From Acidimicrobiia bacterium (GTDB lineage: Bacteria > Actinomycetota > Acidimicrobiia > Spongiisociales > ZC4RG35), in assembly GCA_965209025.1 (NCBI GenBank), contig OZ242375.1, forward strand, positions 997,562 to 1,061,561: DNA of 64,000 nt. Direction: 5' to 3'. The translations under genes were made by a program, and so were the position numbers. Numbering within the stretch: position 1 is the first letter of the stretch; each line of letters begins with the position of its first letter. Shown in pieces: positions 41,996-52,029 of the stretch. Under the pieces are notes generated by a model. It saw only the letters and a list, made by a program, of their open reading frames with translations, had not been told where the DNA came from and made no database searches.

Positions 41996-43000
41996 TCAGG
42001 CCACTCCCAGCAGGTCGCGATAGCGGGCGCCGGACATGGGAGTGCGGCCTAGGTTTTCGGCTATGGCTATCACGGCCTCCAGTTGTTGGAGGTTGGAGGC
42101 GATCAGCTCGTCACGGTGCGGGTAGCGCCAGACGGTGTCCTCCATTCCCAGGCGGACGTGGAGTCCCATCAGCATGGCCAGGGTGACCAAGTAGACCGAG
42201 GGACGGCCTGCCGCGCACACCGAGATGATCGAGTTGGGGTTGATGTCGAAGATGGAGTCAACGATGCGGGTGAGGCCCTGGATCATTTGGCGAGGGTTGT
42301 GCATGGGGCTGCCACCGGGAAGTGCGGGCAGGACCACCCAGTAGAGGGGCTCTTCCAGAAGGCCCGATTCGATCAGGTAGCGGCGGGCGTTGTCCACGTC
42401 GGCGTCGGTGTAGACCGCGATCTCGGGCTTAACTCCCGCCTCCATCAGGACGCGGGTCTTCTCGATCACCACCGCCGGGGGCTTTGCGAACAGGGTGTCG
42501 CCGCAGAAGGTGGCGGTGGTGTTGACCGGCGACCCGGTGATCAGGCCCGAGTTGCTGATCTTGATCATCTCGTTCCAGTCGTCGGGACCGATCGCTACTT
42601 CGCCCGCAGAGACATACAGGTCCTCGAACTCGTCACGGAGCGGTTCGATGATGGTGACGAACCGGGCCAGATCCAGAATGGACCACTCCGCCTCGTTACG
42701 AACATGAATGTGCAGGGCCGTAGCACCCGCCCGCATGCAAGCCCTCCCTGCCTCCATGATCTCCTGTTCGCTGATGGGCTGCGCCGGGTTGTGGCGGGTC
42801 ATGAAGAACCCACCGGTCAGCGCAACCGAGATGGCCACCTCCTCTGAGATGGGCCATCGCGGCGACACGTCCACATCGGCGTATGCGGAGGTGAAGGGAT
42901 TGGTGATGTCGGGCATCCCGTAGGGCTTCAACACCGCGCGGGTCTTGCTCCGCTCCATGTATGCGTTGACTCTGTCCCAGTTGATTCTGTCTTTTGCCAT
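41996..43000 (-). CDS. BKACE (beta-keto acid cleavage enzyme, DUF849)
   Basis: ISVALTG, HIHVR Zn motif, KPEI and HVRLGMED. Confidence 0.9.
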   Translation of the reverse strand: MAKDRINWDRVNAYMERSKTRAVLKPYGMPDITNPFTSAYADVDVSPRWPISEEVAISVALTGGFFMTRHNPAQPISEQEIMEAGRACMRAGATALHIHVRNEAEWSILDLARFVTIIEPLRDEFEDLYVSAGEVAIGPDDWNEMIKISNSGLITGSPVNTTATFCGDTLFAKPPAVVIEKTRVLMEAGVKPEIAVYTDADVDNARRYLIESGLLEEPLYWVVLPALPGGSPMHNPRQMIQGLTRIVDSIFDINPNSIISVCAAGRPSVYLVTLAMLMGLHVRLGMEDTVWRYPHRDELIASNLQQLEAVIAIAENLGRTPMSGARYRDLLGVA

Positions 43001-43018: not shown

Positions 43019-43783
43019 TTACTCGAGACGCTGGGCCCGGAAGCCCCCGTCCACATGCACCAGTTCCCCGGTGATGAAACTTGCCTGTTCCGACAACAAA
43101 AACACGATGGCCTCGGCCAACTCCCCGGTGGCCCCCAGCCGTCCCAGGGCATGCTCCGAAGCGGCCGCCTCCGCGTCCACGATTCCCTGGGCGGCCGCCC
43201 GCTGGAAGAGCGGGGTCTCCACCATCCCGGGGATCACCTGGTTGACCCTTATCCCCGCCGGGGCCCATTCCACCGCCAGCACCCTGGTGAGGCCCCCGAT
43301 CCCCGCCTTCGACGTGGTGTAGGCGGCCCGGCCGGGAAACCCGAAGTCCTGTGCTATCGAACCCACGGTGACGATCGATCCCCCTCCCCCATCCCTCATG
43401 GCCCTCCCCGCCGCTTGACACCAGTAGAAGGTCCCGTTCAGGTGCACCCCGGTTACCTTCTCCCAATGCTCGACCGCCAACTCGAAGCTGTCCCCCACGA
43501 TCTGGATCCCCGCGCAGGTGACCAGCATCCTGATCGGGCTGTTCCACCTCTCGATCTCCGCGGCGGCGGCGTTCACAGCCGCCGGATCGGTTACGTCGCA
43601 GCGCACGAAGCGGACCCGGCCCTCCCCGAAGCGTTCGATCAACTCTGCGGACTGGGCCTCGTTGAGGTCAACCAGCGCGCAGGCCACATCCGGGCGGCGT
43701 TCCAGCAGCAACTCGGCGGTCTTCCAGCCGATGCCGCTGGCCCCGCCGGTTATCACGGCCACAGAAGAAACTTGATCGCTCAT
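43019..43783 (-). CDS. Short-chain dehydrogenase/reductase
   Basis: TGGASGIG, YTTSK and VDGG. Confidence 0.93.
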   Translation of the reverse strand: MSDQVSSVAVITGGASGIGWKTAELLLERRPDVACALVDLNEAQSAELIERFGEGRVRFVRCDVTDPAAVNAAAAEIERWNSPIRMLVTCAGIQIVGDSFELAVEHWEKVTGVHLNGTFYWCQAAGRAMRDGGGGSIVTVGSIAQDFGFPGRAAYTTSKAGIGGLTRVLAVEWAPAGIRVNQVIPGMVETPLFQRAAAQGIVDAEAAASEHALGRLGATGELAEAIVFLLSEQASFITGELVHVDGGFRAQRLE

Positions 43784-44886
43784 TTCTCTCCCTTCTCTGA
43801 GTATCGGTCGGACAACTCCCTGGCGATCAGGGTGCGGTGGATCTCGTTTGCCCCGTCCACGATCTGGTTGAGTTTCGCCTCTCTCATCAGCCTCTCCACC
43901 TTGCCGGACGTCAGGTATCCCCGCCCCCCCATGAGTTGAGTTGCGGCGGTCGTCACGCTCATGGCCAGGTCCGTCACATACACCTTGGCCGCCGAGATCT
44001 GAAGCGACGCCCTTTCGCCGGCGTCGACCCGCGACGCGGCGTGATCCAGATAGATCCGGCCGGTCTCCACCGCTATGCCCATCCCGGCGAGGCTCTGCTG
44101 GACCGCGCCCTGGCGGTTGAGGGGCTTTCCGAACCGGCGGGTCCGGGCGGTGTATACGAGGGCCAACTCCAGGGCCTCGGTGGCGCACCCCAGTGCCAGC
44201 CCGGCGGTGAGCAATCGACTCCTTCCCAGATGCGGCCACAGGTCTCTCATCTCCCCTATCCGGTCCTCGGGGGCCACGAGGCACCCGTCGAACTCGACCT
44301 CGCACAGGTGCACTCCTCGCAGGGCCATGGTCGGGCCCAGTCGCCGTACCTGGGTTCCCCGCGCACCGGGATCGACCGCGTAGATCGACGGATCGGCGTC
44401 CGGAGTCTCCCGGGCGGCCACCAGCAGGAAGTCGACCTGATCGGCGTTGGGAATGTAGGTCTTGGTCCCGGTCAGCCGGAAACCGCCGTCGCGCTTCTCG
44501 GCAATGGTCGTAAGGGCCGCCAGGTCATTACCGGAGCCGGGCTCGTTCAGAGCCAACACCGAAGCGGCCCGACCTTCCACGATGGGAAGCCCGCGCCTGT
44601 TCCACTGCAGATCGTTGGCGACCTCCGCCAGGTACCCGGCGATCAGTGCGTTGGTGAGCAGGAACCCGAAAGGCCGGTACACACGGCCCAGGGCGGCGGC
44701 CACCGCCACGATCTCCGCCCACGGCCGGGGATGCCCGCCCCGGTCGGCGGTAGTCATCATCCCCAGCAGTCCGAAGCGGCGCCCCACCTCCCAGAGCGCT
44801 TCGGGCGGAACATGGCCTTCCTCCTCCCAGGCGTCCACCCGGGGCTCCACCTCGGAGCGAAGATGATCCAGCAGGTCCCCGGTCAC
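43780..44886 (-). CDS. Acyl-CoA dehydrogenase
   Basis: ALNEPGSGND, GTKTYI, QLMGGRG and IVDGANEIH. Confidence 0.9.
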   Translation of the reverse strand: MTGDLLDHLRSEVEPRVDAWEEEGHVPPEALWEVGRRFGLLGMMTTADRGGHPRPWAEIVAVAAALGRVYRPFGFLLTNALIAGYLAEVANDLQWNRRGLPIVEGRAASVLALNEPGSGNDLAALTTIAEKRDGGFRLTGTKTYIPNADQVDFLLVAARETPDADPSIYAVDPGARGTQVRRLGPTMALRGVHLCEVEFDGCLVAPEDRIGEMRDLWPHLGRSRLLTAGLALGCATEALELALVYTARTRRFGKPLNRQGAVQQSLAGMGIAVETGRIYLDHAASRVDAGERASLQISAAKVYVTDLAMSVTTAATQLMGGRGYLTSGKVERLMREAKLNQIVDGANEIHRTLIARELSDRYSEKGEK

Positions 44887-45914
44887 TCGATCCTCCTGGT
44901 CACACCCTTGGAAAGGCAGAATCCCGAGAAGAACACCGAGTGGGAGGCGTTTCCCTCGGTGCCGCCCCCGACCACGATCCGCAGATCGTCGGGCGTCTCG
45001 CAAATCAGCACCCGGTCTTCATCCACCGTCCAATCTCCCTGCGGGATGTTGCCCTCGGGCGGGTAGTCGGACAGCGGGACCTTCCCCATCTCCCACAGGT
45101 GCTCTGCCAGGCGCTTCTTGCTCCACCCGTCCCGGGCGAACACCCCGGCGTGGGCGGGGCTCATCAACAGGGTGAGCGTCCCCCGGGAGAAGAACTGGCT
45201 GGTGGCGGTGGAGCGGAGGGTCTTGGCCAGCATCTTGGCCAGGGAGTCGGGCGTCCACCACACCGCGGTGGAGTTGATCACCGACTCGATGCCCGCCACC
45301 GAGACGGTGGACTCATCCGGCCGGTACCCCAACTGGACGTGCAACGGCTCCCAGGGACTCGACTCCTCGTCCTCGGGGACCACCAGGCTGTACTTCGCCG
45401 GGCTTCCGTGGGTGGCCTGGTCCACCCCGATGTAGGCGCCCCCCAGGTTTCGCATGGCCAGCCGCAGTGCCCGGCCGATGGTGGCGTTGGCCCGGTTGCC
45501 GGGACCGAGCAGGTTGCGGTCGGTGTTCATGGAGAGTTCTCGGCGGATCGGCCCGTTCACCACCACCAGGGGTGTGGCCGGGTTGGTGGTGGATTGGATG
45601 GCGTGCAGGTTGAAGATGGGTTCGCACATGGCCGAGACCGAGGCCACGATCACGGGCATGTAGGAGGGAAGGCATCCGGCCATCACCGCGTTGATGGCCA
45701 ACTTCTCCACGGTTGCCACCCCCCGCTTGGGGTCGATGATCCCGATCTCTTCACTCGGGTGGCGTCCACTCCCGGCCACCATGGCGGCCACCCGCCCGGG
45801 CGTGGGGGGTATCACCGGCAGTCCGTCGGAGAGGTCCTCTCCGTGGAACCAGTCCTGGATCGCGTCCAGGCCCAGATCGGTCGGACAGTCAAGCTCCCGG
45901 GACAACAACTCCAT
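44883..45914 (-). CDS. UGSC-associated conserved hypothetical protein
   Basis: DGLPVIPPT, ATVEKLAINAVMAGC and NRANATIGRALRL, a family I recall being encoded beside UGSC genes. Confidence 0.75.
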   Translation of the reverse strand: MELLSRELDCPTDLGLDAIQDWFHGEDLSDGLPVIPPTPGRVAAMVAGSGRHPSEEIGIIDPKRGVATVEKLAINAVMAGCLPSYMPVIVASVSAMCEPIFNLHAIQSTTNPATPLVVVNGPIRRELSMNTDRNLLGPGNRANATIGRALRLAMRNLGGAYIGVDQATHGSPAKYSLVVPEDEESSPWEPLHVQLGYRPDESTVSVAGIESVINSTAVWWTPDSLAKMLAKTLRSTATSQFFSRGTLTLLMSPAHAGVFARDGWSKKRLAEHLWEMGKVPLSDYPPEGNIPQGDWTVDEDRVLICETPDDLRIVVGGGTEGNASHSVFFSGFCLSKGVTRRIE

Positions 45915-45936
45915 CTAGACGCAGTCCTCCGGCCGC

Positions 45937-46476
45937 TCAGGCCAAGGGTTGCCGGACCGCTTCGATGAGGGGGACGATCTCATGATCAACCGCCAACTCC
46001 ACATACGGCCGCAACTCCTCGGTGGTCATCACCTCGGTCTGGTGCGGGAAGATCACCATGGGCAGATCGGGCACTCCCCGACTGGCCAGGGTGGCCTTGG
46101 CCAACTCCTCGAAGGCCTCGGTGATCAGCACCACCGTTCCCAGCCCCCGCTTTCTCAACTCGGTCCCGTCGTGGCAACTCCACGCTGTGCAAGCCCCTCA
46201 GTTGCCGAGTCCCAGCACCGCGAAGTGGCTGTAACCCACCACCTGATCGATCACCTCCTGGGGCGTGGGCTCGGAGTGCTTGATCTTCCAGTGCCGAACG
46301 TCCCTGATGAACGACAGGCGCCGGAGGCGCTCGTCCACCAGTGCGGCGATGCGGGTCATCGACTCCCAGCGGGAGTTGAGGATGCCCACATTCAGTTCCA
46401 CAGCTTCCACGGGCTTGAGGGGATCGGCGCCGTCCAACCGGCGGTATTCCTCGGCTCGGGGGTCCAACAGTCTCAT
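45937..46476 (-). CDS. UGSC-family selenoprotein (in-frame TGA at 46200-46198 read as Sec)
   Basis: Continuous frame MRLLDP...GLGN-U-GACTAWSCHDG...EKRG-like LRKRGLGTVVLITEAF. Hairpin CGTGG-AGTTG-CCACG begins 14 nt after the UGA. Confidence 0.85.
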
Positions 46477-46796
46477 CTCTGTTCCTCCGGTATCTCGAGA
46501 TCGGCGAGCATCAGGTGCTGGTGGGCGCCGAACACGTCCTTGCAGGCCGGGTCGGAGGAGGCGATGTCCTTCACCATGGTGACCTTGAACGCCAGGGCGT
46601 TGTCCAAGAAGTAGATGCCCAGCACCTGGTCGTTGGTGAGCCCGTACAGCGGCGCCAGCACCTCGGCGGTGATCCTCCCCGAGTCCTTCACCTGCCGGTA
46701 AGCCTCTTCGGAGTCGAAGAACACGTCGAAGGTGGTGTTGAAGGGATCGCAGTTCTTGGACCGGAGGGTCTTGGCGAAGTCGCGAAGCCGAGGCAT
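46473..46796 (-). CDS. DUF4387 protein
   Basis: LRSKNCDPFNTTFDVFF and DVFGAHQH; immediately downstream of the AtuA-like gene. Confidence 0.85.
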   Translation of the reverse strand: MPRLRDFAKTLRSKNCDPFNTTFDVFFDSEEAYRQVKDSGRITAEVLAPLYGLTNDQVLGIYFLDNALAFKVTMVKDIASSDPACKDVFGAHQHLMLADLEIPEEQR

Positions 46797-48190
46797 CAGC
46801 GGCCCCTCGGGAAGTCGACCACCTGGTAGGGGAAGAGTTCCAGGGGGTCTTCCACTTCCAGGAGATGCCATACATTGAACGAGAACGCCGGGCCGACATT
46901 GATGGTGGGGGGAGCGAACCGGGTTGCCAGGTTCCCCGCCGACGTCTGGCGGTTCGGGTAGGGCTTTATCCACAGTTCCATGCAGATAAAGTAGGCCAGG
47001 TTCTCGGCCAGTTCCTGGGTTTCGGCGATGACGTCCACCAAAAGGCCGATCTCATGGGGCGTCCGTCCCCGGAGCGGCTCGTTGGGACCCAGCACGCCGT
47101 TGCGCCCGTACTGGTCGAAGGTGATCTGGTAATGCTCTCCCTCATCCAGGTGCCCGAAGCGCGGTGACCCGGAGATGGTGGAGCGGATGTTGTCCAGGAA
47201 CCAGTCCAGGCAGTCGATGAAAGCCGGTTCCCGCACTCCGAACACGGCAATGGTGCGGTACCCCTCCCGGCGGGCGCCCTCCAGCTTGATCGTGTAGGGC
47301 GTGTCAACCCAGATGGCCCCCTCCGAGCGCACCCCCGAACCGGGGACCTCGGTGTAGGTGGCGTCGGTCAGGTCGAGATATCCTCCCGGGTTCTTCTCCA
47401 TGAAGGGGTTGTCCCGCTCGTACATGGAGTGGCTGGCGATGGACCGGGCCGTGGCGGCCTGGGTGTCCGACACCGGGTAGACGGTGATGGCGTCGGGCTC
47501 CAGGACTCCGTAGATCGGCTCGGACGGGTCGCCGGGATGGAGCGCCAGGCCGGCGCACTCCAGAACCTTGGCCATGTGGGTGGTGGACCCGCGAGGGAAT
47601 CCGGCCGCCAGCGGAGGAGCCATGTATATCCCCACATCGAGGGCCCGCCCGGTGATCACTCCGTCCACCCCGGCCTCCAGGGCTGCCATGATCGGCTCGG
47701 GCCCCATCTGCGCCACTATGTGTTCGGACGCCTCGACGTCTTCGGGAGTCAGCATCTCCGAGAGGTGGGGCGACTCCACGGCCCGGGGGGCCTTCGCCCC
47801 GCTTCTGATCCGCTCGGCCAGCATCTCCCTGTCAACTTCTCCGTCGATCACTGCGATCCGGAGCGGCAGGTCCTCCTCCGAGGTGATCTCGTCCACCCGA
47901 TCGAGGCACTCGTCCAACTGGGTGCGCCCCCCGGCGATCCCCACCGAGAACACGAACGGAACGCCTTGTTCCTTGGCGAAGCGCATGTAGGGTCGGACGT
48001 TCTCCCGGAAGTTTTCGCTGGTGAACTGGGTGCCGCTCCCCAGCATGTAAGGGCCGAAGTCCATCCCGGTGCCCTGCGAGCACACCGCGTCCACTCCCCG
48101 GCGGGCCGTCTCGGCCAGGAACTCATCCACCCTGGGGTGGACGGGGATGTGGTTCACGAAGGAGAGGATGCGGAAGTCGTCTCTGGGCAT
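46796..48190 (-). CDS. AtuA-like (DUF1446) protein
   Basis: GMDFGPYMLG, IVAQMGPEP, ITGRALD, AKVLECAG, HSMYE and YTIKLEGA. Confidence 0.85.
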   Translation of the reverse strand: MPRDDFRILSFVNHIPVHPRVDEFLAETARRGVDAVCSQGTGMDFGPYMLGSGTQFTSENFRENVRPYMRFAKEQGVPFVFSVGIAGGRTQLDECLDRVDEITSEEDLPLRIAVIDGEVDREMLAERIRSGAKAPRAVESPHLSEMLTPEDVEASEHIVAQMGPEPIMAALEAGVDGVITGRALDVGIYMAPPLAAGFPRGSTTHMAKVLECAGLALHPGDPSEPIYGVLEPDAITVYPVSDTQAATARSIASHSMYERDNPFMEKNPGGYLDLTDATYTEVPGSGVRSEGAIWVDTPYTIKLEGARREGYRTIAVFGVREPAFIDCLDWFLDNIRSTISGSPRFGHLDEGEHYQITFDQYGRNGVLGPNEPLRGRTPHEIGLLVDVIAETQELAENLAYFICMELWIKPYPNRQTSAGNLATRFAPPTINVGPAFSFNVWHLLEVEDPLELFPYQVVDFPRGR

Positions 48191-48211
48191 GGAAGGACCT
48201 TTCATCAAAAG

Positions 48212-49501
48212 CTAGCCGAAGAAGAAATTCACCGGCCCCAGAGTGAGGGGTGGGAAGAAGGCGATGATCAGCACGTCGACGATGAGCACCGCGATGAAGG
48301 GCAGCACGGCCCTGATCAGGTCGGCAGAGGGGATCCCGGCGATCTTGGAGTTGACGAACAGGAGAACTCCGTAGGGGGGAGTGAGGAGGCCGACCGCGAT
48401 GGCGCCCATGAAGGTGACACCGTAGTGGATGGGATCCATCCCCACCTCGGGTGAGGTGGCGATCGGCTCGAGGATGGGATAGAGCACCAGCACGATGGGG
48501 ACTGTCTCCATGAAAGTGCCGATGATCAGGAGAAGGAGGATCATCATCAGGATCACCACCGCCGGGGTGCTCGAGAATCCCAGCATGAACTCGGTGAGCT
48601 GCTGGGGCACCTTGGCCAGGGTCAGGAACCGCCCGAAAGCCTGGGCCGTGGCGACGATGATGAACAACACCGCGGCGAACTCGGCCGATTCCTTGAGAAT
48701 TTTGAAGAAGGTCTTCCATCCCATCTCCCGGTATATGAAGATGGCTACCAGAAGCGAATACACCACCGCCACCGCCGCCGCTTCGGTGGCCGTGAAGACT
48801 CCGGCCAGGATCCCTCCCATGATCACCACCGGGAAGACCAGGGCGGGCAACGCCTTGTAGGTGGTTGTGCCCATGCGCTTGATGCTGAACCTCTCGGGAT
48901 CGGCCTTCACGCCCGAACGCGGGCGCCTTATCCAGGCCACCGTGGCCAGGGAGACCGCGATCAGTATTCCGGGGCCATACCCTCCCACGAACAGCTTGGT
49001 GATCGAGACACTGGTGGCGGCCCCCGCCAGGATCATCGGCACGCTGGGAGGGACGATGATCCCTATTGAACTCGAAGCGGCGGTGACCCCCGCCGCGTAG
49101 GGAGTGGGATACCCACCCTTTTTCATCTCCGGCACCAGCACCGAGCCGATGGCTGCGGAGTCGGCGGTGGCCGAACCGGAGATCCCCCCGAAGAACATGG
49201 ACCCGAACACGTTCACATATGCCAGGCGGAGCCGGCTGAAACCGAACAGAAGGTCAACCCAACCGATCAAACGCCGGGAGACCCCCCCTGCCAGGATGAG
49301 GTTGCCGGCCAGAACGAACAGAGGGGCTGCGAAAAGCACCAACGAGTCGATCCCGTTGATGGAGTTGCGCACCACGTCGATGAGGGAGGCCGAAGGGTGC
49401 AGCAGCACCCCCACGATGGTGGCGCCGCCCAGCGCCGCGAAGATCGGCACCCGCAGCAGAAGCAATAGGAACAGCGTCCCGAACACCGCCAACAACAGCA
49501 T
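48212..49501 (-). CDS. dctM: TRAP transporter large permease
   Basis: FGGISGSATAD, IVPPS and GLLTPPYG; about 12 TM helices. Confidence 0.95.
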   Translation of the reverse strand: MLLLAVFGTLFLLLLLRVPIFAALGGATIVGVLLHPSASLIDVVRNSINGIDSLVLFAAPLFVLAGNLILAGGVSRRLIGWVDLLFGFSRLRLAYVNVFGSMFFGGISGSATADSAAIGSVLVPEMKKGGYPTPYAAGVTAASSSIGIIVPPSVPMILAGAATSVSITKLFVGGYGPGILIAVSLATVAWIRRPRSGVKADPERFSIKRMGTTTYKALPALVFPVVIMGGILAGVFTATEAAAVAVVYSLLVAIFIYREMGWKTFFKILKESAEFAAVLFIIVATAQAFGRFLTLAKVPQQLTEFMLGFSSTPAVVILMMILLLLIIGTFMETVPIVLVLYPILEPIATSPEVGMDPIHYGVTFMGAIAVGLLTPPYGVLLFVNSKIAGIPSADLIRAVLPFIAVLIVDVLIIAFFPPLTLGPVNFFFG

Positions 49502-49504
49502 GGC

Positions 49505-50008
49505 TCAGACCTCGGAAGTCGCCGCGGAGGACGGCTCTTCGGAATCGGATGACCGGAACAAATCGACGATCTCGTCCACTCCCAGGATCAGCGCCAGGGC
49601 GGCGCCCACCGGCGCCGCCGCGTACTGCCAGGAGCGGGAGATCTTGGTGATCGGCATGGTCTGGCCCGACACCTTGGTGGCCAGAAGGGTCCCGTAGTAA
49701 ACGAAGAAGATCAGCATGGCCCACTTGAAGACGATGGAAACCACCGCTATCCAGCGGCGTTCCCGCACGACGTCGATGATCAGGTGCTTGCCCTTCATGG
49801 TGGTGGCCAGCCCCACGAACACCAACCAGATGAGCATGATTCTGGGCACCTCCTCGGACCACACGATCGAAGAGTTGAAGACGTACCGCATCACGACCTG
49901 CACGAACATCAGAAGCGACAGGCCGCCCAGCAGCACGGCTAGGAGCAGTCGGAGCACCGAAATGGTGCTCCGACTGCCTTTGCTAATTAATCCGGCTACC
50001 GAGCTCAC
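49505..50008 (-). CDS. dctQ: TRAP transporter small permease
   Basis: QVVMRYVFN..WSEE; 4 TM helices. Confidence 0.93.
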   Translation of the reverse strand: MSSVAGLISKGSRSTISVLRLLLAVLLGGLSLLMFVQVVMRYVFNSSIVWSEEVPRIMLIWLVFVGLATTMKGKHLIIDVVRERRWIAVVSIVFKWAMLIFFVYYGTLLATKVSGQTMPITKISRSWQYAAAPVGAALALILGVDEIVDLFRSSDSEEPSSAATSEV

Positions 50009-52029
50009 GGAGCAGCCGCACGAATGCGGTCCGCCCACTCGGCCAACTCGGGCCGTTCGTCATAGACGCCCGCAACCGCAGCGCGGAAGGCGTCCTTGTC
50101 TACGTCGTTGACCTCCCAGCCCTGGTTCTGCAGTTCTGCGAGGTAACCGGCGTCCAGCTTGGCCGCTTCGGCCCGCTGATGCGCGGCGGCCTCGATGGCA
50201 GCCTGCTGCACCAACTGCTGTGCGGCCGGACCCAGGCCGTCCCACAACTCGCCACCCATGAACATGAGAAGCGCCGCATAGATGTGCTCGGTGAGCGACA
50301 GGTACTTGACCGGCGTCTCGTAGTACTTCTGGGTGACCGCCGCGAAGATCGGCGCGCCGGTCCCGTCAACCACCCCGTTCTGCAACGAAGTGAAGATCTC
50401 CGGACCCGGCAGCGGCACCGGATTGGCGCCCACCAACTCATAGGTACGGATATAGATGTCAGACTCCGGCACTCGGAACTTCAGGCCCGCAGCATCGGCG
50501 GGCGTGACGATCGGACGCTGGCTGTTCATCATCGAACGCAGACCGAACTGGCCGATGGCCAGGGCCTTGATGTCCACTTCCTCGGCCAAGCCCAGGAGTT
50601 CGCGTCCCACCGGACCGTCAAACACCGCGTCAACGTGGTCCTGACCGTCGAACAGGAAGGGCAGGTTCACAACTCCCATCTCGGGAACGAAGCTCTCCAG
50701 GAGTCCGGCGAACACCACACCGGCGTCGATGGAGCCCAACTGGGCGCCCTCGACCAACTCGCGCTCGGAACCGATCTGCGACGACGGGAAGACCTCCACG
50801 GTCATGCGGCCGCCCGAGCGCTCCTCGACCAACTCCTTGAACTTGACGGCCGCCACGTCGGCATAACCGTCCGGAGCGCCCGAATGCCCGATATTGATGG
50901 TGATCTCGGGCAGGAGGGAGACGTCCACGGCGCCGGTCGGGCTCACCGCACGGATGCGATCGGCCCACTCGGCCAACTCGGGACGCTCGTCATAGACGCC
51001 CGCCACCGCGGTGCGGAACAGGCCCTTGTCGACGTCATTGACCTGCCAGCCCTGGTCCTGCAACTCGGCGAGGTAGCCGGCGTCCAACTTGGCTGCTTCG
51101 GCCCGCTGATGCGCGGCAGCGGCGGAAGCCGACTGCTCGATCAGGTCCTGGGCCTTGGGGGTCAGGCTGTCCCACAGCTCACCCGACATGAACATGAGGA
51201 GCGCCGCGTAGATGTGCTCGGTGAGCGACAGGTACTTGACCGGCGTCTCGTAGTACTTCTGGGTGACCGCCGCGAAGATCGGCGCGCCGGTCCCGTCAAC
51301 CACCCCGTTCTGCAACGAAGTGAAGATCTCCGGACCCGGCAGCGGCACCGGATTGGCGCCCACCAACTCATAGGTACGGATATAGATGTCGGATTCGGGA
51401 ACCCGGAACTTCAGGCCCGCCGCATCCGAGGGGGTGTAGATCGGCCGCTGGCTGTTCATCATCGAGCGCAGGCCGAACTGGCCGATGGCCAGGGCCTTGA
51501 TGCCCACACCCTCAGCCAAGCCGAGGAGTTCGCGTCCCACCGGACCGTCGAACACCGCGTTCACGTGGTCCTGTCCGTCAAACAGGAACGGCAGGTTCAC
51601 CACTCCCATCTCGGGAACGAAGCTCTCCAGAATCCCGGCGAACACCACACCGGCGTCGATGGAACCCAACTGGGCGCCCTCGACCAACTCACGCTCGGAA
51701 CCGATCTGTGACGACGGGAAGACTTCCACGGTGATCTGGCCACCGGAGCCTTCTTCGACCAACTCCTTGAACTTGACGGCCGCCACGTCGGCATAACCGT
51801 CAGGAGCGCCCGAATGCCCGATGTTGATGGTGATCTCGGGATAGTCGGGCTCTGCCGGCGCCGGTTCATCGGCCGGCTCCTCGGGAGTCTCGGCCGGCTC
51901 CTCGGGAGCTTCGGGGGCGGCAGTGGTGGTGGTTGCTGCCGCGGTGGTTGCTGTGGTCTCTTCCTCCCCATCTCCGCAGGCTGCGGCCAAGAGAGCCAGG
52001 ACTCCCAGTACTGCTATGAATTTTCTCAC
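50005..52029 (-). CDS. dctP: TRAP substrate-binding lipoprotein with two tandem DctP domains
   Basis: Lipobox LAAAC, T/A/P/E-rich linker, two ~300-aa DctP domains each with GLKFR and LQNGVVDG. Confidence 0.92.
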   Translation of the reverse strand: MRKFIAVLGVLALLAAACGDGEEETTATTAAATTTTAAPEAPEEPAETPEEPADEPAPAEPDYPEITINIGHSGAPDGYADVAAVKFKELVEEGSGGQITVEVFPSSQIGSERELVEGAQLGSIDAGVVFAGILESFVPEMGVVNLPFLFDGQDHVNAVFDGPVGRELLGLAEGVGIKALAIGQFGLRSMMNSQRPIYTPSDAAGLKFRVPESDIYIRTYELVGANPVPLPGPEIFTSLQNGVVDGTGAPIFAAVTQKYYETPVKYLSLTEHIYAALLMFMSGELWDSLTPKAQDLIEQSASAAAAHQRAEAAKLDAGYLAELQDQGWQVNDVDKGLFRTAVAGVYDERPELAEWADRIRAVSPTGAVDVSLLPEITINIGHSGAPDGYADVAAVKFKELVEERSGGRMTVEVFPSSQIGSERELVEGAQLGSIDAGVVFAGLLESFVPEMGVVNLPFLFDGQDHVDAVFDGPVGRELLGLAEEVDIKALAIGQFGLRSMMNSQRPIVTPADAAGLKFRVPESDIYIRTYELVGANPVPLPGPEIFTSLQNGVVDGTGAPIFAAVTQKYYETPVKYLSLTEHIYAALLMFMGGELWDGLGPAAQQLVQQAAIEAAAHQRAEAAKLDAGYLAELQNQGWEVNDVDKDAFRAAVAGVYDERPELAEWADRIRAAAP
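50020..51840. repeat. 930-bp-period internal tandem duplication in dctP
   Basis: For example 50281-50460 is identical to 51211-51390. Confidence 0.92.

Follow-up and report, generated by a model that had tools for sequence, protein, structure and literature searches.

An in-frame UGA in a UGSC-family gene of an Acidimicrobiia bacterium: a predicted selenoprotein and its 343-residue partner in a conserved catabolic operon

In a 64,000-nucleotide stretch of an Acidimicrobiia genome (assembly GCA_965209025.1, contig OZ242375.1, positions 997,562 to 1,061,561; below, the window), a TGA triplet interrupts a minus-strand reading frame that otherwise resembles one gene of the UGSC family. The question is whether this triplet is a stop codon or a selenocysteine (Sec) codon and, in the latter case, what the selenoprotein may do beside a 343-residue neighbour in a run of catabolic genes. 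An initial annotation, made from the sequence alone, had proposed a hidden selenoprotein that works with this neighbour. The gene and the triplet are as follows.

45937..46476, minus strand: predicted UGSC-family selenoprotein gene, 179 codons and a TGA stop, with Sec93 in a U-G-A-C motif (read-through translation)
46198..46200, minus strand: in-frame UGA, probably read as selenocysteine (residue 93); the column is Cys in homologues and the TGA is kept in related loci

The frame runs from the ATG at 46476 to the stop TGA at 45939-45937 and contains one internal TGA, at 46200-46198. Open reading frame (ORF) calling with the standard table 11 breaks it into two ORFs. These had been taken as pieces of one frame of 179 codons separated by a single TGA, and the translation bears this out. 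The read-through product has 179 residues and passes through ...VLGLGN-U-GACTAWSCHDGTELRKRG..., that is, ...VLGLGN-U-GACTAWSCHDG...; with its near flanks, Sec93 reads ...GLGN-U-GACTAWSCHDGTELR. The start codon overlaps the stop codon TGA of the upstream DUF4387 gene in an ATGA, as the initial annotation had stated, and a GGAGGA lies about 9-14 nt 5' of the ATG. The longer listed piece, 46198..46899, is in the same frame as the gene, but its part 5' of 46476 is an open-frame artefact of high GC content. The true start is 46476, since this upstream part overlaps, out of frame, the Pfam-supported DUF4387 gene.

The read-through protein matches the Pfam UGSC family PF24696 with 101.6 bits (cut-off 25). 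Residues 3-164 align with model positions 2-164 of 172 as a single domain that crosses the TGA, and the proposed family identity is thereby upheld. The score against the NCBIfam equivalog of UGSC, NF041046, is 71 bits and does not reach the cut-off of 125; the protein is thus inside the Pfam family and outside the NCBI equivalog. By the same model the SAR324 relative (P0004) has 53.2 bits, and the second UGSC copy of this genome (P0275), which passes, has 138.6 bits. The gene would escape standard annotation, because the TGA splits its frame and its score is below the NCBI family cut-off. A word-index search gave no near-length matches to the read-through protein. HMMER found 399 relatives at E ≤ 0.001 among 1.84 billion representatives, just two of them at E ≤ 1e-30. 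The family itself has long been known and is not new here: according to Zhang and Gladyshev (PLoS Genet 2008; PMC2398784) UGSC is a major selenoprotein family with a UxxC motif. A 2026 review (PMC13188914) places it among selenoproteins with largely uncharacterised functions, and a further review likewise gives it no function.

The residue at the TGA was examined in an alignment of the best 150 of the 399 relatives (151 rows with the query). As had been anticipated, the column is Cys in most of them (138 of 150). The others have Ser (three), Trp (one), Gly (one) or a gap (one), five sequences end just before the column, and one begins after it. Columns 93 and 96 are C in 139 of 151 rows each, the query included. 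The UGA of codon 93 therefore occupies the site of the first Cys of the C-G-[S/A/G]-C motif of the relatives. The middle position of the motif is Ser in 103 rows, Ala, as in the window protein, in 23 and Gly in 16, and because it varies in this way U-G-A-C falls inside the range of the family.

If the TGA were a genuine stop, produced by mutation, assembly error or gene fission, the locus would hold a pseudogene or two small genes. The two ORFs given by table 11 fit this possibility, as do the five homologues ending at the TGA column, which are fragments from public gene callers. However, the Cys column and the one Pfam domain aligned over the triplet speak against it, and so does the AlphaFold2 (AF2) model of the read-through protein, which forms one domain with a predicted local distance difference test score (pLDDT) of 93.2. 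An orthologue with one TGA is present in 12 of 16 other genomes of the genus. A wider scan of one genome per species gave 22 loci, which probably overlap the genus set, so that the two counts are not independent. The protein identities are 85-99% in fifteen of these loci, 66-70% in six, and 49% in a SAR324 single-cell genome. The aligned codon is TGA in all 22, the SAR324 locus included. Contigs from three DNA runs (three studies) span 46198-46200, with no difference there among the best-supported rows listed; with the 22 of 22 loci, this speaks against a sequencing error. A contig from an RNA library (46082-46296) also bridges the TGA; it is not counted as evidence of expression.

Moreover, the region after the TGA evolves as coding sequence. 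In the alignment of the window gene with 11 congeners, variable sites at codon positions 1/2/3 number 12/6/58 in the 92 codons 5' of the TGA and 20/9/51 in the 86 codons 3' of it. The latter pattern indicates that the downstream half is coding and under purifying selection, which a genuine stop would not lead one to expect. We regard a genuine stop as extremely improbable.

The remaining question is which amino acid is inserted. The genome contains the genes that the initial annotation proposed to look for, selA, selB, selC and selD, all above curated cut-offs. The adjacent selA and selB score 402.6 and 289.8 bits, selD (G000:C1:1605992-1606912, minus strand) scores 381.8 bits, and tRNA-Sec, called by ARAGORN as tRNA-SeC with anticodon tca, scores 79.5 bits. 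The selD gene is itself a selenoprotein gene, with one in-frame TGA in an AG-U-GCK motif followed by an 8-bp hairpin. Read-through of the UGA as Trp or Cys, by near-cognate decoding or in a reassigned code, would find its example in the one homologue with W at the column, P0004. The matching SAR324 locus has TGA at this codon, so the W is most simply a gene caller's code-4 rendering of it. TGA is also the terminator of 10 of 14 neighbouring Pfam-supported genes, the UGSC gene included, and therefore the genetic code is not reassigned. Together with the full Sec machinery and with nucleotide-level conservation 3' of the UGA that fits a cis-acting signal, this makes insertion of Trp or Cys very improbable. 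By these comparisons of sequences, the gene is almost certainly a genuine selenoprotein gene of the UGSC family.

Bacterial selenocysteine insertion sequence (SECIS) elements, by the criteria of bSECISearch, are hairpins that closely follow the UGA and have a G among the first bases of the apical loop. One candidate was found.

46170..46184, minus strand: candidate minimal SECIS hairpin, CGUGG / loop AGUUG / CCACG, from conservation and paired columns

The arms are CGTGG (46184-46180) and CCACG (46174-46170), and the loop AGTTG (46179-46175) starts 19 nt after the UGA (13 spacer bases and the 5-base arm). The stem, loop and 19-nt spacing of the SECIS-like hairpin proposed initially are thus present, and they are conserved. 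The geometry alone, on the other hand, lies within chance, as 613 of 3891 sampled TGA triplets of the genome (16%) precede a Watson-Crick stem-loop that has 5 bp or more and fits this loose geometry. The conservation is seen at several distances. Among the window gene and the 11 congeners, the longest invariant nucleotide run in the gene is 38 nt (gene positions 271-308, with the TGA at 277-279) and covers both the TGA and the hairpin. It holds 12 consecutive invariant third codon positions, reached by 73 of 100,000 shuffles. Across the wider set, synonymous differences occur in the spacer that separates the hairpin from the UGA, while the 15-nt hairpin is constant except in one locus (L048), where two synonymous changes make one compensatory double change from G-C to A-U. 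Over 16 distinct sequences the hairpin pairs in 80 of 80 cells, and the 22 bases that run from GCACAG to CCACGA are unchanged in the SAR324 gene, although its protein is only 49% identical.

Other results speak against the hairpin. The double change is only suggestive, because 28 of 500 shuffles reach a single compensatory change. In RNAfold the hairpin is not preferred, and the 69-nt stretch has z = +1.2, with 179 of 200 shuffles folding at least as well. An Rfam scan of 45800-46600 at E ≤ 10 returned four sub-threshold unrelated families and no SECIS family. A competing 7-bp stem, which excludes the hairpin, may form between GGCAACU (46206-46200, including the U of the UGA) and AGUUGCC (46179-46173). 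It pairs in 111 of 112 cells over the 16 sequences, with two wobble changes and no double change. This alternative stem (46173-46206) engages the loop of the candidate SECIS together with some bases of its 3' arm; it fits the alignment equally well, and could be a switch or a coincidence. Hence the hairpin alone is weak evidence, and what lifts it above chance is its conservation, as estimated from the alignments.

The gene immediately 3' of the UGSC gene encodes the neighbour.

44883..45914, minus strand: partner protein, 343 residues, of an unnamed family, with invariant DGLP and MAGC (Cys81) motifs and a GGAGGA 5' of the ATG

The partner matches no Pfam or NCBIfam family, and a Pfam scan at E ≤ 10 gave nothing meaningful. 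Of 8000 scored candidates, 7937 are relatives of it at E ≤ 0.001. In 99 sequences the residues D30, G31 and P33, M78, A79, G80 and C81, and R148 are invariant, and R141 and R151 are nearly so. Cys81 is the sole Cys among the columns that are invariant or at least 90% conserved. The initial annotation had linked the selenoprotein to this neighbour, and natural fusions and conserved adjacency support the link. In two proteins, P0019 and P0043, a Cys-form UGSC domain is followed by a domain 40% identical to the partner (E 2e-70 and 4e-71, respectively), and 11 of the best 150 UGSC homologues are at least 400 residues long. Conversely, PF24696, the UGSC domain, is present in 45 of 106 long partner relatives, and PF07992/PF00070 (pyridine-nucleotide disulfide oxidoreductase; thioredoxin reductase according to some sources) in 36. 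AhpC/Redoxin domains are found in two, other domains in four, and 19 have none on record. In a sample of the phylum, 22 of 301 genomes have a UGSC match, and the partner lies within 1.5 kb of UGSC in 25 of 28 loci of other genomes; of the three misses, one is a sub-threshold hit and two are loci cut by contig ends. On this sequence record, a two-part unit formed by UGSC and the 343-residue neighbour is well supported.

At its 3' end the partner gene is overlapped, at the ORF level, by up to 121 nt of the acyl-CoA dehydrogenase ORF (44883-45003, minus strand). Two public gene calls, P0166 (393 residues) and P0377 (936 residues), join partner and acyl-CoA dehydrogenase domains.

The pair is part of a longer minus-strand run, in the order DctP, DctQ, DctM, AtuA-family protein, DUF4387, UGSC, partner, acyl-CoA dehydrogenase (ACAD), short-chain dehydrogenase/reductase (SDR) and beta-keto acid cleavage enzyme (BKACE). 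The first three encode a tripartite ATP-independent periplasmic (TRAP) transporter.

50005-52029, minus strand: TRAP transporter DctP, a 674-residue ORF with two complete DctP domains (residues about 68-362 and 365-670, compared with PDB chains)
49505-50038, minus strand: TRAP transporter DctQ (Pfam/NCBIfam)
48212-49501, minus strand: TRAP transporter DctM (Pfam/NCBIfam)
46796..48208, minus strand: AtuA/DUF1446 protein, homologue of the large subunit of a CmlAB-type lyase (PF07287, 72.4 bits; start codon uncertain)
46473..46796, minus strand: DUF4387 protein, homologue of the small subunit of a CmlAB-type lyase (PF14330, 92.9 bits; its stop overlaps the UGSC start)
43780-45003, minus strand: acyl-CoA dehydrogenase ORF (Pfam; start uncertain)
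about 43019-43780, minus strand: SDR (Pfam)
41996-43000, minus strand: BKACE (Pfam; PDB 2Y7D, E 7.2e-22)

The AtuA-family protein matches subunit A of citramalate lyase (PDB 9ERQ chain A) with E 1.7e-74 over residues 36-459, and the DUF4387 protein matches subunit B (9ERQ chain B) with E 1.9e-16. PMC4682846 describes DUF1446 as a domain of unknown function. The relatives of DctP and BKACE in PDB offered no usable substrate clue. We found no paper joining BKACE with a TRAP transporter, citramalate lyase with AtuA, or UGSC with AtuA or CmlAB-type lyases, in a literature search that was not exhaustive. The double-length DctP is matched in Acidimicrobiia loci, and the L057 and SAR324 loci align over just about 900 nt of it. 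A cytochrome P450 gene (52161-53396, plus strand), divergent from the operon, is kept in the Acidimicrobiia loci whose flank reaches it and has no match in the SAR324 locus.

Every related locus of sufficient length, that of SAR324 among them, has the same gene order. In the latter (L058, 822-8425), which belongs to another phylum, the operon stands in the same order with 37-66% identity per gene; the sole ACAD match there, about 1.8 kb past BKACE, is weak at 21% identity. On the other hand, no AtuA or DUF4387 gene occurs within 1.5 kb of the 28 other UGSC loci in the phylum. In a UGSC tree of 65 rows, whose bootstrap is not fully settled, the four operon-linked proteins group in one clade with support 100/100; its stem is 1.22 changes per column long, and the second copy of the genome lies outside it. 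The SAR324 protein, whose row is flagged as deviant in composition, nests inside Acidimicrobiia with support 99/90. This nesting suggests transfer of the operon between phyla, and by the sequence data a horizontal transfer involving SAR324 may have included the whole operon.

The second UGSC-partner module of the same genome is on contig C3 (G000:C3:237145-239125, minus strand; L036 8146-10126). There a 487-residue partner is encoded directly 5' of a UGSC gene with the canonical AD-U-GSC motif, the copy that passes NF041046. This partner has an N-terminal CETC domain, thioredoxin-like by a language-model look-up (score 0.93, a lead only). The module stands among unrelated genes (NUDIX, MGMT, sigma factor). 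Within a few kb there are two tandem IS21-type units (G000:C3:231564-235938; L036 2565-6939, plus strand), each with a transposase (rve, Mu-transposase C) followed by an IstB ATPase, and a GmrSD-type restriction gene adjoins them.

What may the pair do? The explanation that we consider probable overall is that the Sec-containing UGSC protein and its partner are a redox pair acting in an organic-acid catabolic operon. The short conserved hairpin at 46170-46184 would direct SelB with Sec-tRNA to decode the UGA as selenocysteine. The UGSC protein would be the small subunit of a two-part enzyme, and the neighbour, with its invariant Cys81 and several conserved arginines, the large one. Sec93 and Cys96, at the N-terminal end of a helix, would cycle between a selenol/thiol pair and a selenylsulfide. 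Electrons would pass from a source of the thioredoxin/thioredoxin-reductase type to Sec93/Cys96 and on to the active site of the partner, which would reduce an anionic substrate. A selenol/thiol redox centre serving this active site is our best inference from the sequences.

The reductase interpretation is based on several observations. The long relatives of the partner carry domains of the thioredoxin-reductase type (36 of 106) and AhpC/Redoxin domains (2 of 106), and the CETC domain of the partner on contig C3 has thioredoxin-like features. In the AF2 model of the UGSC protein, a five-stranded alpha/beta domain resembling flavodoxins and receivers, helix 94-109, which follows strand 85-91 directly, begins with U93 and C96. 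As to the pathway, the pair is a constant part of a catabolic operon with translational coupling and for this reason most likely performs one step in the breakdown of an imported organic acid, a role proposed from the observed gene context.

Several points, in addition to the results on the hairpin and the low NF041046 score given above, weigh against this explanation. The reading of the UGA as Sec, including translation past it, is drawn from sequence. The matches of the UGSC model (quinone reductases, EF-Tu G domains, receiver domains; Z up to 12.6) are generic. The partner model, with pLDDT 93.4, has no counterpart at Z ≥ 5 among 48,161 solved chains (best Z 4.5). The electron source is only assumed, because the window partner has no thioredoxin or reductase domain, and nothing in the operon obviously calls for a reductive step. 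Searches of PDB sequences with the profiles gave insignificant matches for UGSC (best E 0.03) and one match for the partner (E 0.66).

One alternative without a reductive step is that the two proteins form a two-subunit Fe-S hydro-lyase similar to class I fumarate hydratase or mesaconase, in which Sec93, Cys96 and the Cys81 of the partner hold the catalytic cluster and the hydroxy acid produced is fed to the CmlAB-type lyase. Class I fumarate hydratases are the sole, weak Foldseek matches of the partner at E ≤ 0.001 (best E 4.9e-4, probability 0.90, TM-score 0.28), followed by the two-subunit enzyme of M. jannaschii at E 0.03. VIA-align lists 6mso_A (Z 4.0 over 95 residues) and 7xky_A (Z 3.9). 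There are exactly three conserved Cys/Sec positions over the two proteins, and the module is directly 3' of the citramalate-lyase homologues. A preprint (bioRxiv 10.64898/2026.01.16.699985) describes an engineered E. coli route in which mesaconate is converted by the class I fumarase FumA, with the lyase acting downstream of it. However, the TM-scores are 0.25-0.29 with rmsd of 14-18 Å, and the VIA-align matches span only about 95-105 C-terminal residues, below the meaningful level of this tool. The partner itself has one conserved Cys, Cys81, in place of three cluster cysteines, and we know of no precedent for Sec as an Fe-S ligand. The fusions with thioredoxin-reductase-type or redoxin domains (38 of 106) and the CETC domain of the paralogue point to dithiol chemistry instead. 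We thus consider the hydro-lyase unlikely.

A pyruvoyl-dependent reductase, similar to protein B of the glycine/sarcosine/betaine and D-proline reductases, is another possibility. The partner would then self-cleave at Gly80-Cys81, the pyruvoyl group would bind an amine substrate, and the selenol would attack it. GrdB and PrdB follow a comparable logic, with a UxxC selenoprotein, a larger subunit with a critical Cys, and electrons from thioredoxin; Cys81 of the partner is within the invariant M-A-G-C motif. However, in the modelled structure Cys81 is placed between two helices (69-79 and 83-96), while self-processing sites are typically at a strand-loop. The Pfam scan at E ≤ 10, in which weak relatives can be filtered out, gave UGSC only for the selenoprotein and nothing meaningful for the partner. 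Neither Grd nor Prd chains appeared among the PDB matches of the two profiles, and the operon contains no amine-related genes. A reductase of this kind is improbable here.

The redox pair may therefore be placed, with the reservations above, among the known systems. The window protein shares with the UGSC family its length (about 175-180 residues), its single domain with a full-length Pfam match, and Sec or Cys in the first position of U/C-x-x-C. It differs from canonical UGSC proteins in its motif, U-G-A-C and not U-G-S-C, and in belonging to the separate clade with 100/100 support and the stem of 1.22. The AF2 model has a flavodoxin- or receiver-like alpha/beta fold, and the structure matches listed for it include no thioredoxin chain, whereas PMC2398784 expected a thioredoxin-like fold. 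The same source reports fusions of UGSC with an unknown conserved domain ('Unknown_1', Global Ocean Sampling data, Figure S1A). This is probably the same domain as the partner, although in the window the two parts are encoded by separate adjacent genes. The module on contig C3 also differs: the window partner, at 343 residues, is bare of any thioredoxin domain, UGSC precedes it in a reversal of the gene order, and the pair is embedded in a ten-gene catabolic operon.

The other system to be compared is CmlAB of Raoultella planticola (PDB 9ERQ/9EVF), the subunits of which are homologous to the products of the two genes 5' of UGSC. CmlAB cleaves citramalate directly to pyruvate and acetate, according to the above preprint, and the CmlAB literature examined contains no mention of a selenoprotein.

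The new element here, as judged from sequence comparison, is that UGSC proteins of a distinct U-G-A-C clade are encoded within a conserved operon of TRAP transporter, CmlAB-type lyase, UGSC, partner, ACAD, SDR and BKACE genes. Most of the sampled UGSC-partner pairs have none of the lyase genes of this operon in their short flanks, whereas the window clade is locked into it. We tentatively suggest, with more doubt than confidence, that U-G-A-C UGSC and its partner catalyse a selenium-dependent step in one specific pathway, mobile by horizontal transfer, for an organic acid that the cell imports. The pathway would begin with a TRAP importer whose binding protein is doubled, continue with a CoA-free C-C lyase of the CmlAB type, and lead on to SDR, BKACE and ACAD. 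If true, such a role would be the first metabolic assignment for the roughly 20-year-old UGSC family, since the substrate could be found via the binding protein of the transporter and the lyase. The operon is common to sponge-associated Acidimicrobiia and a SAR324 cell, and its partly understood chemistry gives a practical route to this substrate. A role in the pathway of this operon would be the new and most useful point.

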